From NCBI RefSeq assembly GCF_003018255.1, contig NZ_CP027440.1: a stretch of 64,000 nucleotides of DNA, one strand, 5' to 3'. Positions 2,061 to 53,095 of the stretch are shown here, piece by piece. The stretch's first letter is position 1. Every line of letters starts with the position of its first letter. Source of the DNA: Escherichia coli. GTDB taxonomy: Bacteria > Pseudomonadota > Gammaproteobacteria > Enterobacterales > Enterobacteriaceae. The notes under the pieces are model-generated. The model made no database searches and was not told the origin of the DNA. It saw only the letters and a program-made list of their open reading frames with translations. The position numbers were made by a program, and so were the translations under genes.

Positions 2061-2297
2061 ATGTTGCAACGTACGCTGGGCAGTGGCTGGGGAGTGTTGC
2101 TGCCGGGATTGCTGATTGCAGGGCTGATGTATGCGGATTTATCGCCGGATCAATGGCGGATTATCATTCTGATGGGATTAGTATTGACGCCGGCGATGCT
2201 GTATCACAAACAGTTGCGGCATTACGTTTTGCTGCCATCGTGCCTGGCGCTTATTGCTGGCATCATGCTGATGATAATGAATTTGAAGCAGGGATGA
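2061..2297 (+). CDS. yjjZ: Small hydrophobic membrane protein YjjZ
   Basis: 78-aa ORF from internal ATG of the 115-aa track ORF; expected position between fhuF and the tRNA-Leu cluster. Confidence 0.55.
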   Translation: MLQRTLGSGWGVLLPGLLIAGLMYADLSPDQWRIIILMGLVLTPAMLYHKQLRHYVLLPSCLALIAGIMLMIMNLKQG

Positions 2298-2336
2298 TAA
2301 AACAGGGAAGAAACAAGAAAGGAAGTAAAGATAATT

Positions 2337-2423
2337 GGTGCGAGGGGGGGGACTTGAACCCCCACGTCCGTAAGGACACTAACACCTGAAGCTAGCGCGT
2401 CTACCAATTCCGCCACCTTCGCA
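2337..2423 (-). tRNA. leuQ: tRNA-Leu (CAG), copy 1 of 3
   Basis: 87-nt reverse complement of the E. coli tRNA-Leu1 sequence including encoded CCA; anticodon CAG. Confidence 0.93.
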
Positions 2424-2457
2424 CAGTCATCTTACTTTTTTTGATATTGCCTCGTTT

Positions 2458-2544
2458 GGTGCGAGGGGGGGGACTTGAACCCCCACGTCCGTAAGAACAC
2501 TAACACCTGAAGCTAGCGCGTCTACCAATTCCGCCACCTTCGCC
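2458..2544 (-). tRNA. leuP: tRNA-Leu (CAG), copy 2 of 3, one substitution in the variable arm relative to copies 1 and 3
   Basis: Same 87-nt tRNA sequence; differs at position 2497 (a instead of g on the + strand). Confidence 0.9.
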
Positions 2545-2572
2545 CAGTGCGAGCAATATCAACGTGGTTTTT

Positions 2573-2659
2573 GGTGCGAGGGGGGGGACTTGAACCCCCA
2601 CGTCCGTAAGGACACTAACACCTGAAGCTAGCGCGTCTACCAATTCCGCCACCTTCGCA
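2573..2659 (-). tRNA. leuV: tRNA-Leu (CAG), copy 3 of 3
   Basis: Identical to copy 1; tandem array with short spacers. Confidence 0.93.
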
Positions 2660-2857
2660 TACCGTCAATTCTTAAAAAGAATTGCTACCACGGAGGCGCA
2701 TTCTAGTGGTTTTCAGCTTTTCGTCAATAGTTAATTATCGACAGAGGTGTAATTGCTGGAAAAATGTCCATCAGCGGATTGTGGATAATTCGTTTGTCGG
2801 TCAGATAAGGCGTGTACGCCGCATCCGACACGGTATGCGGCGATATATATCAGATAC

Positions 2858-3889
2858 TCAACCTTTCTTCGCCTGGCGGGTCATAATGGCGCGATACACC
2901 TTGAAGCGCCCGGTTTGCGCGATCACTTCGTGGAAGCCAAATGTCTCATCCAGCACGTCCGGATAAGGCAGGAAGGCGTTCGCTACAATTCGCAGCTCGC
3001 CGCCGCTATTAAGATGACGCACCGCGCCGCGAATCAGCGTTTGCGCGGCATCCAGGCTGGTTTGCATCCCATCGTGGAACGGCGGGTTGGAGATGATCAT
3101 ATCAAAACGACCTTTCACCTCGGAAAAGACGTTACTGGCAAAGACTTCACCTTCAACACCGTTGGCCGCAAGTGTTGCGCGGCTGGCTTCTACCGCTGGT
3201 GCAGAGACATCGCACAGAGTGAGACGAATTTTCGGCGAATGGCGCGCAAAGGCAACCGAAAGTACGCCCGCGCCACAGCCGACATCCAGCACTTTACCTT
3301 TCGTGTGCGGGGTTAACGTCGAGAGCAGCAACTGGCTACCGACATCCAGACCGTCGCGGCTAAACACGCCAGGCAGCGTTTTGACCGTCAGGCCATCGAC
3401 GCTGTATTCGCCCCAGAATTTATCGGCATCAAATACTGGCTGTTTTTCCAGACGACCAAAATAGAGGCCACAGCGACGAGCGCTGTCCATTTTATTCAAC
3501 GGCGCATAATCTGACAGCATCTGCTCGGCGCTGCGCACGCCGCTGCGGTTCTCGCCAACGACAAAAATATCCGTGCCCACTGGCAGCAGAGAAAGTAAAT
3601 TCATCAACTGGAACTGGGCTTCCGGTTTGTTCTTCGGCCAGTAGTAAATCAGCGTATCGCAATCTGCGACATCATCCGCCGTGGCGACCAGACTAAAACG
3701 GGCGTTATCCCCCATCTGGCGGCTTAACACCTGCCAGTGGTGGAATTGCTGGGTATGAGCACGGCTGGCCGCGGTATCTAAACGCGCGGGCAGGTCATCC
3801 TGTAAGTCTCCGGCAAAAAGAATACGGCTTTGTTCGAAATCATCACTGTGACGCAGCAAGACTTCACTTGCCGGGGTAAATGCAGACAT
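2858..3889 (-). CDS. rsmC: 16S rRNA (guanine1207-N2)-methyltransferase RsmC
   Basis: 343-aa ORF with SAM-binding motif ([11 protein letters not shown]) and NPPFH catalytic motif; synteny. Confidence 0.9.
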
Positions 3890-9674: not shown

Positions 9675-10450
9675 TTTGCCGTTTTATCGACACCCACTGC
9701 CATTTTGATTTCCCGCCTTTTAGTGGTGATGAAGAGGCCAGCCTGCAACGCGCGGCACAAGCGGGCGTAGGCAAGATCATTGTTCCGGCGACAGAGGCGG
9801 AAAATTTTGCCCGCGTGCAGGCGTTAGCGGAAAAATATCAACCGCTGTATGCCGCATTGGGCTTGCATCCTGGTATGTTGAAAAAACATAGCGATGTGTC
9901 TCTTGATCAGCTACAGCAGGCGCTGGAAAGGCGTCCGGCGAAGGTGGTGGCGGTGGGGGAGATCGGTCTGGATCTCTTCGGCGACGATCCGCAATTTGAG
10001 AGGCAGCAGTGGTTACTCGACGAACAACTGAAACTGGCGAAACGCTACGATCTGCCGGTGATCCTGCATTCACGGCGCACACACGACAAACTGGCGATGC
10101 ATCTTAAACGCCACGATTTGCCACGCACTGGCGTGGTTCACGGTTTTTCCGGCAGCCTGCAACAGGCCGAAAGGTTTGTACTGCTGGGCTACAAAATCGG
10201 CGTAGGCGGTACTATCACCTATCCACGCGCCAGTAAAACCCGCGATGTCATCGCAAAATTACCGCTGGCATCGTTGTTGCTGGAAACCGACGCGCCGGAT
10301 ATGCCGCTCAACGGCTTTCAGGGGCAGCCTAACCGCCCGGAACAGGCTGCGCGGGTGTTTGACGTACTTTGCGAGTTACGCCCGGAACCAGAAGATGAGA
10401 TTGCCGAAGTGTTGCTAAATAATACGTATACGTTGTTTAACGTGCCGTAG
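9671..10450 (+). CDS. yjjV: TatD-family metal-dependent hydrolase/DNase YjjV
   Basis: 259-aa ORF; N-terminal DTHCH metal-binding motif typical of the TatD family; start overlaps yjjU stop. Confidence 0.85.
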   Translation: MICRFIDTHCHFDFPPFSGDEEASLQRAAQAGVGKIIVPATEAENFARVQALAEKYQPLYAALGLHPGMLKKHSDVSLDQLQQALERRPAKVVAVGEIGLDLFGDDPQFERQQWLLDEQLKLAKRYDLPVILHSRRTHDKLAMHLKRHDLPRTGVVHGFSGSLQQAERFVLLGYKIGVGGTITYPRASKTRDVIAKLPLASLLLETDAPDMPLNGFQGQPNRPEQAARVFDVLCELRPEPEDEIAEVLLNNTYTLFNVP

Positions 10451-10670
10451 GCCGGATAAGGCGTTCACGCCGCATCCGGCAGTTGGCGCACAATGCCTGA
10501 TGCGACGCTTGACGCGTCTTATCATGCCTACAAGTCTGTGCCGAACCGTAGGCCGGATAAGGCGTTCACGCCGCATCCGGCAGCTGGCGCACAATGCCTG
10601 ATGCGACGCTTGACGCATCTTATCATGCCTACAGGTCTGTGCCGATCCGTAGGCCGTATCCGGCATGTCA
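10448..10670. repeat. BIME/REP-type intergenic repeat: about 101-bp unit in two tandem copies plus a partial third
   Basis: Unit taggccggataaggcgttcacgccgcatccggcag...gtctgtgccgaaccg recurs at about 10448 and 10549, with a partial copy at about 10649; contains the REP palindrome gccggataaggcgttcacgccgcatccggc. Confidence 0.75.
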
Positions 10671-11531: not shown

Positions 11532-13053
11532 GGCTTATCACGCGCGGCTGGCGTTCCAGAATACGAGTGTTGCGTGCGGCTTCTTCTCCCAGCCAGGTGG
11601 TGTTGGTGCGTGAACCTTCGGCGCGATATTTTTCTAAATCCGACAAACGCACCATATAACCGGTAACGCGAACCAGATCGTTACCGCTGACATTGGCGGT
11701 AAATTCACGCATTCCGGCTTTAAAGGCACCGAGGCAAAGCTGTACCAGCGCCTGCGGATTACGTTTGATGGTTTCGTCGAGCGTCAGAATGTCGCTGATG
11801 CCGGAATAATAATAAGCATGATGCGGGGCGACAGTTTGCAGATGGGTAATCGGATCTGGCTCATCACCATACGGCAAGCGTGCGCCAGGCGTGGTGCCGA
11901 TATCGGAACTGATCCCCGACTGTGCGTGTAGCATGGCGCGTTTTTGCCAGCCATATTTCACGGGGGTATTGGCGACAAACTCCGCCAGTTGTGCGCTGAT
12001 GCGATAACCCACTTCATTTGCGGCGGCTTCTTTACCGTAGCGCGCGGCAATCCCTTCTTTCTCACACAGCAAGTTAACTGCTTCCGCCAATCCGTACATG
12101 CCAAACATTGGCACAAAACGTTCAGGGTTAATCAGCCCTTCTTTCACCAGGAAGCTATTCTCAAAGAAGTGTGATTGTTGATAGAGGAATTCACACCGCG
12201 CATCGATGATGGCGATCTGCTGCTGGCAGTAGTGCGGTAGAGTGCGTGTAAAGAAGTCATCCAGCGATTCACTGCGCTCGGCAATGGCTTTCAGGTTAAG
12301 GCGTACCAGCGTGCTGCCACCACCCGCCAGCGGCAGTGAGTTGTAACAGCTCACAATCCCGTAGCCCCCTTTTGTGAAAATTTTATCATGCACCGGACCG
12401 TTGGCGATGTGCGGTTTGCTACATTCACAGAGGTTCTTCGCCACTTCCAGCAGTAGGTCATCAGGGGTGATTTCAGGATCGTAGATAAAGGTCAGGTTCG
12501 GTGAAACCTGCTTCAACTCTGCGTCTGCACGTAAGATCGCGCGGGTAATGGGCGAATCAGACGGGCCGATATTGGCGTGCATAAAGGCGTCTGGCAGGGT
12601 TCTGTCGAGGTAACGCCAGAAACGTTTTATTCGAATATCGATCTCGTCTTGTGTTAGAATTCTAACATACGGTTGCAACAACGCATCCAGTTGCCCCAGG
12701 TAGACCGGCATCGATGTGACCGATGGTACGTGGTGGTAAAGAATGGTCAGCAGAGAGAGTGCATCATCAAGATCTTTCGCGCCTTCCAGCTCCAGCCATT
12801 CGGAACCGTTCGCCAGAAAACGGGCGTAATCGGGTAAGACATAGCGCGGTTTGTACGGCGCATGACCTTCAAACATATCGCAGATTACACCTTCATCCAG
12901 CGCGCGGCGGGCTTCGGCAGGAAGCTGTGGGTAAGGCAGATTGTTTTCTGCTTCCAGTGCCAGAAAATGGCGCTTCTGCTCCGGGCTAAGTACCGGGCTG
13001 GTGACAATTTGCTGGCAACGTTGTTGCAGTGCATTTTCATGAGAAGTGGGCAT
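11503..13053 (-). CDS. yjjI: Uncharacterised glycyl-radical-enzyme-like protein YjjI
   Basis: 516-aa ORF at the expected position upstream of deoC; family assignment from memory of the E. coli yjjI-yjjW pair. Confidence 0.8.
12373..12388. promoter_or_regulatory. Candidate DeoR operator OE (imperfect palindrome)
   Basis: tgtgaaaattttatca lies 279 bp upstream of the O1 palindrome, matching the known deo operator spacing. Confidence 0.4.
12652..12667. promoter_or_regulatory. DeoR operator O1 (deo P1), embedded in the yjjI coding sequence
   Basis: Perfect 16-bp palindrome tgttagaattctaaca; 599 bp upstream of the second palindrome. Confidence 0.7.
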
Positions 13054-37257: not shown

Positions 37258-37326
<69 letters not shown>

Positions 37327-37337
37327 CGCGTACAGGA

Positions 37338-37380
37338 AACACAGAAAAAAGCCCGCACCTGACAGTGCGGGCTTTTTTTT
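37338..37380 (+). terminator. thr attenuator (leader terminator)
   Basis: aaaagcccgcacctgacagtgcgggc hairpin followed by tttttttt, between thrL and thrA. Confidence 0.85.
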
Positions 37381-37406
37381 CGACCAAAGGTAACGAGGTA
37401 ACAACC

Positions 37407-51035: not shown

Positions 51036-51123
51036 TCGCCCTATAAACGGGTAATTATACTGACACGGGCGAAGGGGAATTTCCTCTCCGCCCGTGCATT
51101 CATCTAGGGGCAATTTAAAAAAG
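51036..51123 (+). ncRNA. tpke11: Possible tpke11 small RNA (dnaK-dnaJ intergenic region)
   Basis: Positional analogy only: K-12 annotates a small RNA filling the dnaK-dnaJ spacer; region contains a hairpin cgggcgaaggggaatttcctctccgcccg. Confidence 0.3.
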
Positions 51124-52357: not shown

Positions 52358-52510
52358 TTACTCGGATTCGTAAGCCGTGAAAACAGCAACCTCCGTCTGG
52401 CCAGTTCGGATGTGAACCTCACAGAGGTCTTTTCTCGTTACCAGCGCCGCCACTACGGCGGTGATACAGATGACGATCAGGGCGACAATCATCGCCTTAG
52501 GCTGCTTCAT
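52358..52510 (-). CDS. hokC: Type I toxin HokC (Gef), Hok/Gef family membrane toxin
   Basis: 50-aa ORF MKQPKAMIVALIVICITAVVAALVTRKDLCEVHIRTGQTEVAVFTAYESE. Confidence 0.85.
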   Translation of the reverse strand: MKQPKAMIVALIVICITAVVAALVTRKDLCEVHIRTGQTEVAVFTAYESE

Positions 52511-52567
52511 TGCTCTCTTCTCCTTGACCTTACGGTCAGTAAGAGGCACTCTACATGTGTTCTGCAT
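52358..52567 (-). CDS. mokC: Overlapping regulatory ORF MokC (same frame as hokC, N-terminally extended)
   Basis: 69-codon in-frame extension upstream of hokC, as in hok/mok/sok loci. Confidence 0.6.
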   Translation of the reverse strand: MQNTCRVPLTDRKVKEKRAMKQPKAMIVALIVICITAVVAALVTRKDLCEVHIRTGQTEVAVFTAYESE

Positions 52568-52613
52568 ATAGGGGGCCTCGGGTTGATAGTAAAATATCAC
52601 TCGGGGCTTTTCT
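52559..52613 (+). ncRNA. sokC: Possible SokC antisense RNA (antitoxin of hokC)
   Basis: Positional inference from the K-12 arrangement, where sokC overlaps the mokC start in antisense; no independent sequence signal checked. Confidence 0.3.
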
Positions 52614-53095
52614 CTATCTGCCGTTCAGCTAATGCCTGAGACAGACAGCCTCAAGCACCCGCCGCTATTATATCGCTCTCTTTAACCCATTCTGTTTTAT
52701 CGATTCTAATCCTGAAGACGCCTCGCATTTTTATGGCGTAATTTTTTAATGATTTAATTATTTAACTTTAATTTATCTCTTCATCGCAATTATTGACGAC
52801 AAACTGGATTATTTTTGAAGTATTGGCCTAACAAACATCGCCGACTGACAACAAATTAATTATTACTTTTCCTAATTAATCCCTCAGAAATCCTGACCTT
52901 AAGCTATGATTATCAGGGCTTAGGGTCACACGTCAGCGCTTACAGCCGTCAAAAACTCATCTCATCACTGATGACGCAAATCCTTCAATGCCTCGTAAAA
53001 AGCGAATTATTCCTACACTATAATCTGATTTTAACGATGATTCGTGCGGGGTAAGATAGTAAAAACGATCTATTCACCTGAAAGAGAAATAAAAA

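Follow-up and report, generated by a model that had tools for sequence, protein, structure and literature searches.

Close to the 5' end of the window (the whole 64-kb stretch of E. coli DNA that was analysed), three tandem tRNA-Leu(CAG) genes are identical but for one base in the middle copy, which raises the question whether that base marks a real isodecoder or an error in a repeated region. ARAGORN found exactly three tRNA genes in the window, all of them tRNA-Leu(CAG) on the minus strand, and the Rfam tRNA model (RF00005, gathering score 29) matched each of the three copies with 48.5 bits over the full model (positions 1-71). The genes form a co-oriented tandem between rsmC and yjjZ/fhuF and are transcribed away from rsmC. 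The features of the locus are:

2858..3889, minus strand: rsmC, the upstream neighbour and the marker of the orthologous locus in other genera (ORF; annotation of a 100%-identical strain; tblastn synteny)
2700..2727, minus strand: sigma-70 promoter-like site, TTGACG, 16 nt, TAGAAT, followed by the G+C-rich GCGCCTCC (consensus scan)
2572..2658, minus strand: leuQ orthologue, promoter-proximal tRNA-Leu(CAG), canonical C48 form (ARAGORN; Rfam; identical to K-12 leuQ)
2457..2543, minus strand: leuP orthologue, middle tRNA-Leu(CAG), U48 isodecoder (ARAGORN; identical to K-12 leuP, b4369)
2496..2496, minus strand: the variant base, A on the plus strand and U48 in the tRNA, where it forms a U·G wobble with G55
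2336..2422, minus strand: leuV orthologue, distal tRNA-Leu(CAG), canonical C48 form (ARAGORN; identical to K-12 leuV)
2061..2297, plus strand: yjjZ (DUF1435), the convergent downstream neighbour (annotation transferred from the matching strain locus)

Each tRNA gene is 87 nt long. A sequence-only reading of the locus had claimed that the first and third copies are identical over 87 nt and that the second carries one difference, and this was confirmed by an 87-column alignment, in which the outer genes (2336-2422 and 2572-2658) are the same throughout and the middle gene departs from them in a single column, tRNA nucleotide 48, as a C to U change (linear tRNA numbering is used throughout for the variable-arm base, not Sprinzl e-numbers). 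The plus-strand strings had been quoted correctly, gtaagAaca in the middle copy versus gtaagGaca in the outer ones, but the base had been placed at 2497 and the array at 2337-2659, both shifted by +1; the variant A is at window position 2496, and the equivalent positions 2375 and 2611 are G. Upstream of leuQ, the promoter-like site at 2700-2727 matches the sigma-70 consensus at 10 of 12 positions. Judging from its position and from the literature on the leuV promoter, this site is a candidate for the promoter of the operon. Further Rfam matches in the window were the threonine operon leader (37262-37381, plus strand), the sok antitoxin RNA (52508-52660, minus strand), tpke11 (51046-51123, plus strand) and two adjacent copies of naRNA4 (10450-10629, plus strand). 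In the K-12 record the threonine leader presumably comes right at the beginning, and its presence suggests that the window runs across the point where the E. coli chromosome map conventionally starts.

A 511-bp query around the array matched 5425 of 5426 complete E. coli genomes, one strain being 100% identical, and the features annotated under the matches were three tRNA-Leu genes and yjjZ. In the annotation of K-12 MG1655, leuV, leuP and leuQ are located between yjjZ and rsmC, and all three equal the genes in the window one for one. As orthologues of annotated genes, the window copies are no chance resemblance. The middle gene is identical to K-12 leuP (b4369) in 87 of 87 nt, including U48, and has the same middle position, with rsmC upstream and yjjZ and fhuF downstream. 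Of the two spacers, that between leuQ and leuP is the same in both strains and that between leuP and leuV has a 1-nt difference. Six substitutions separate the strains over the 511 bp; they lie in the leuP-leuV spacer, the flanks and the end of yjjZ, and the tRNA genes have none. The comparison with leuQPV of related strains, proposed earlier as a check, thus gives U48 in K-12 leuP and C48 in K-12 leuQ and leuV. The fourth tRNA-Leu1 gene of K-12, leuT in argX-hisR-leuT-proM, also has C48. The one-base variant of leuP is already known and ordinary. The papers that first gave the sequence of the operon, in the early 1980s, reportedly list it already, and GtRNAdb presumably does so too. The difference has been stated in two papers, one of them a tRNA-seq preprint in which (leuP) is listed apart from the identical set (leuQ leuT leuV) (10.1101/2020.02.21.958157).

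An exact match to the 87-nt U form was present in 4536 of the 5429 records of complete E. coli genomes, and the canonical form was found in 5375. With a 60-nt variant query covering nucleotides 28-87, U48 was found in 4845 of 5426 genomes (~89%), with one place in the median genome; no canonical copies came up with this query, probably because its C8 run was masked and the remaining 28-mer seed had to span position 48, and the count is therefore taken as the presence of U48 and not as a comparison of C with U. Extra U copies are uncommon (4970 places in the 4845 genomes). The leuQ-leuP junction was detected in 4964 genomes and the leuP-leuV junction in 4978, so that the full array is missing in about 8.5% of the genomes, and U48 is present in about 97.6% of those with the leuQ-leuP junction.

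Most genomes without U48 have the array collapsed to one gene. In the U-less genomes sampled, two O157:H7-type strains and one unrelated river isolate, a single canonical tRNA-Leu(CAG) lies between rsmC and yjjZ (E. coli O157:H7 ECP19-798, AVS0578 and strain 111; loci L124, L126 and L127, equivalent to 2336-2658 in the window). The single gene of O157:H7 combines the upstream flank of leuQ with the downstream flank of leuV and looks like what a deletion between direct repeats would leave. Differing RsmC and YjjZ protein accessions place the collapse in at least two backgrounds. In two other strains, MRE162 (L129, 874-1195) and Z1323HEC0016 (L130, 874-1196), leuQ also has U48, giving U-U-C arrays, which are consistent with gene conversion from leuP or with parallel mutation. 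Furthermore, leuP showed an additional C-to-U change, located in the 3' strand of its D stem, in an O111:H8 strain (C26U; L123, 508-594), where U48 is kept, and in an E. albertii strain (C24U; L004, about 12791-12877). Each of these changes turns a G-C pair into G·U, and neither was seen in the flanking leuQ and leuV of the O111:H8 and E. albertii strains. In strain CY34 (L128, 1201-1520), all three genes are 86 nt long and have a C7 run for the C8 run that is found at 2343-2350, 2464-2471 and 2579-2586 in the window, and several matches to the U48 query were 59 or 61 nt long. The 8-bp G·C run has been reported as a hotspot of indels (PMC8510543); a change in its length is also a likely homopolymer error in long-read assemblies.

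The U form extends well beyond E. coli. A scan of species-representative genomes with a U-form 34-mer gave at least 120 loci, and as these were selected for U, the frequency and loss of the U form among species are not countable from them. Among the matches listed, the U form occurs in more than 25 genera of Enterobacterales and in two classes of loci. The first is a tandem array adjoining rsmC and holD (tblastn synteny), in which the identity of RsmC to that of the window is 82-98% in Enterobacteriaceae and 54-58% in Morganellaceae. In transcription order, the array is C-U-C in Escherichia (coli, albertii and one further species), Salmonella enterica subsp. arizonae, Citrobacter, Klebsiella and Raoultella, as well as in Kosakonia, Phytobacter, Pseudocitrobacter, Pseudenterobacter and Intestinirhabdus, again among the matches listed. 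Among the genera listed, Lelliottia, Huaxiibacter, Trabulsiella and Pluralibacter have the U in the last gene, and the array of Kosakonia arachidis is U-U-C. Two-gene arrays are found in Morganellaceae, U-C in Xenorhabdus and Photorhabdus and C-U in Proteus and Morganella. The other class of loci is argX-hisR-leuT-proM; here, among the matches listed, leuT has the U form in many genera, including Enterobacter, Citrobacter, Klebsiella, Raoultella, Pantoea, Escherichia whittamii, Morganella and Xenorhabdus (L005, L019, L031, L043, L053, L077 and others). Several species in this U-selected sample consequently have a gene tally of 2C:2U, versus 3C:1U in E. coli, where K-12 leuT (L125, 607-693) is C. 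The spread of both forms across genera indicates that both are old and that U in the middle gene is the inherited state in the E. coli lineage.

The change had been assigned to the variable-arm region, and both the Rfam alignment and a written-out cloverleaf bear this out. Nucleotide 48 lies within a 12-nt insertion between Rfam model positions 45 and 46, which corresponds to the long variable arm of a class II tRNA. This arm consists of a 4-bp stem (G46-C57, U47-A56, C48-G55 and C49-G54) and a UUAC loop. Nucleotide 48 is in the 5' strand, and C48U converts the third stem pair, C48-G55, into a U48·G55 wobble, so that the stem reads GUUC/GGAC in leuP versus GUCC/GGAC in the canonical copies. 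The sequence-only reading would have taken as refutation a change that was common across strains and in an unpaired position without structural consequence; common it is, but nucleotide 48 is paired and stays so. Unconstrained minimum free energy folding recovered the cloverleaf for neither 87-mer (z-scores of -1.4 and -0.6), and the effect of C48U was therefore judged on the fixed cloverleaf and on the isolated hairpin. Nearest-neighbour energies changed from -3.7 (C48) to -0.8 kcal/mol (U48) for the isolated variable-arm hairpin, and from -33.2 to -30.3 kcal/mol for the whole fixed cloverleaf. By these predictions, C48U leaves the variable arm paired but weaker.

Pair counts over the 20 distinct tRNA-Leu(CAG) sequences of Enterobacterales obtained from the loci fetched show how this stem varies. 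The helix 46-49/54-57 is paired in 100% of the cells. Pair 48:55 is C-G in 12 of the 20 sequences and U-G in the other eight, unpaired in none, and G55 is invariant; pair 49:54 is C-G in 16 and U-G in four, while pair 47:56 shows one compensatory change, from U-A to C-G. A different variation was flagged by cmscan in the acceptor stem, whose fifth pair (tRNA nucleotides 5 and 79) is an A·C mismatch in the E. coli copies and G·U, A-U or C·C in other Enterobacterales versions (unpaired in 9 of the 20 distinct sequences).

Several published results bear on what such a change may do to the tRNA. LeuRS of E. coli does not use the long variable arm as an identity element, the sequence and folding of this arm are uncorrelated with leucylation, and tRNA-Leu variants without the long variable arm stay active (PMC9976931). 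The leucine identity elements are A73, the D/T-loop tertiary pairs with G18 and G19, and A15-U48 in standard numbering (PMC9976931). As far as the gene sequence tells, all of these are intact in the leuP variant, which differs only in linear nucleotide 48. In K-12, leuQPV has been shown experimentally to give one precursor transcript that is separated by RNase P (PMC2190699).

We therefore consider it very probable that leuP is a long-established isodecoder of tRNA-Leu1(CAG) in which C48U is a tolerated, near-neutral difference and, jointly with this, that the locus is the normal E. coli leuQ-leuP-leuV operon with leuP as its middle gene. Identity to leuP, the structural position of C48U and its frequency in E. 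coli and across genera were observed directly, and beyond them we infer that leuP U48 is functionally equivalent to the other copies and near-neutral. The U48 tRNA would be transcribed from the shared promoter, released by RNase P from the polycistronic precursor and charged with leucine, and it would read CUG like the other copies. Because the anticodon, A73 and the D/T-loop elements are unchanged, leuP is expected to work like the other copies, and it is because the variable arm is unread by E. coli LeuRS that a near-neutral isodecoder is most likely. C48U would have been inherited from an ancestor of the Enterobacteriaceae, and may since have been erased in some lineages by collapse of the array and spread in others to a neighbouring gene by gene conversion. 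Two observations speak against near-neutrality: U48 is in the same middle gene across genera whose RsmC is only 82-92% identical, and among the matches listed it is also found at leuT in many genera. A strictly neutral site might be expected to change more often, and some selection for keeping the wobble is thus conceivable.

A stronger form of this argument would be that U48·G55 is held by selection, with leuP a functionally distinct isodecoder and cells gaining from having both forms; the basis may be stability or turnover, precursor folding and RNase P processing, modification, or tRNA fragments. As part of this proposal, the C-U-C order and the coexistence of C48 and U48 would seem older than the split between Enterobacteriaceae and Morganellaceae. 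The retention of C-U-C by position in at least 10 named genera, the co-occurrence of both forms in Morganellaceae with their two-gene arrays, the presence of U at leuT in many genera, the restriction of position 48 to C or U with an invariant G55, and the ~97.6% of E. coli with the Q-P junction that have U48 all point in this direction. Nevertheless, collapse of the array has removed leuP from ~8.5% of E. coli genomes, the successful O157:H7 lineage among them, and the arrangement is not fixed, as seen from the U-U-C strains and the C-C-U or U-U-C genera. Moreover, the variable arm is dispensable for E. coli LeuRS (PMC9976931), the cross-genus sample was selected for U, and purifying selection on the stem alone accounts for the kept pair. 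We consequently regard selection for two distinct forms as unlikely.

It is far less probable still that leuP is a slowly decaying copy under relaxed constraint, in which U48 was the earliest in a series of slightly deleterious C-to-U changes. The second C-to-U changes in the D stem, C26U in O111:H8 and C24U in E. albertii, and a variable-arm hairpin predicted to be 2.9 kcal/mol weaker would fit such decay, but every one of the changes keeps base pairing, the exact U-form sequence occurs 72 times among the loci fetched, and in most E. coli and in many genera leuP equals the other copies apart from position 48. A sequencing or assembly error, the other explanation offered by the sequence-only reading besides a real isodecoder, has practically no likelihood left and is ruled out by reference genome, population counts, other genera and literature: near-identical triple repeats are prone to misassembly, and the C7 run in all copies of CY34 and the 59- and 61-nt query matches show the kind of variation that could arise in this way, but the same base is in the same gene of K-12 MG1655 and of 4845 of 5426 complete genomes, U is found in the orthologous arrays of many independently sequenced genera, two papers state it, and an independent complete genome matches the 511-bp region with 100% identity.

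With leuP read as a tolerated isodecoder, the observation comes down to something already documented for the E. coli reference genome: one base of the variable arm sets leuP apart from leuQ, leuV and leuT. For practical work, this base should not be 'corrected' during assembly polishing, and it allows tRNA-seq reads to be assigned to leuP. The evolutionary angle is that the same difference is found in the same array gene across many enterobacterial genera, although the collapsed and U-U-C arrays indicate that the copies can recombine. Should selection after all maintain U48, the two isodecoders would differ in function, perhaps in how stable they are, in how the precursor folds and is processed by RNase P, or in the fragments that they yield, and the locus would be a small bacterial example of functional isodecoders.

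Compared with canonical tRNA-Leu1(CAG), as encoded by leuQ, leuV and leuT, leuP shares 86 of 87 nt, including the anticodon, the acceptor stem, the D, anticodon and T arms, the discriminator A73 and the encoded CCA. The canonical form has C48-G55 in place of U48·G55, and the predicted stability of its variable-arm hairpin is higher by 2.9 kcal/mol. Like other isodecoder tRNA genes, leuP and the canonical copies have the same anticodon and differing bodies, here with both bodies in one operon. The difference in leuP is minimal, a single pair-keeping transition in an arm left unread by the cognate synthetase of E. coli.
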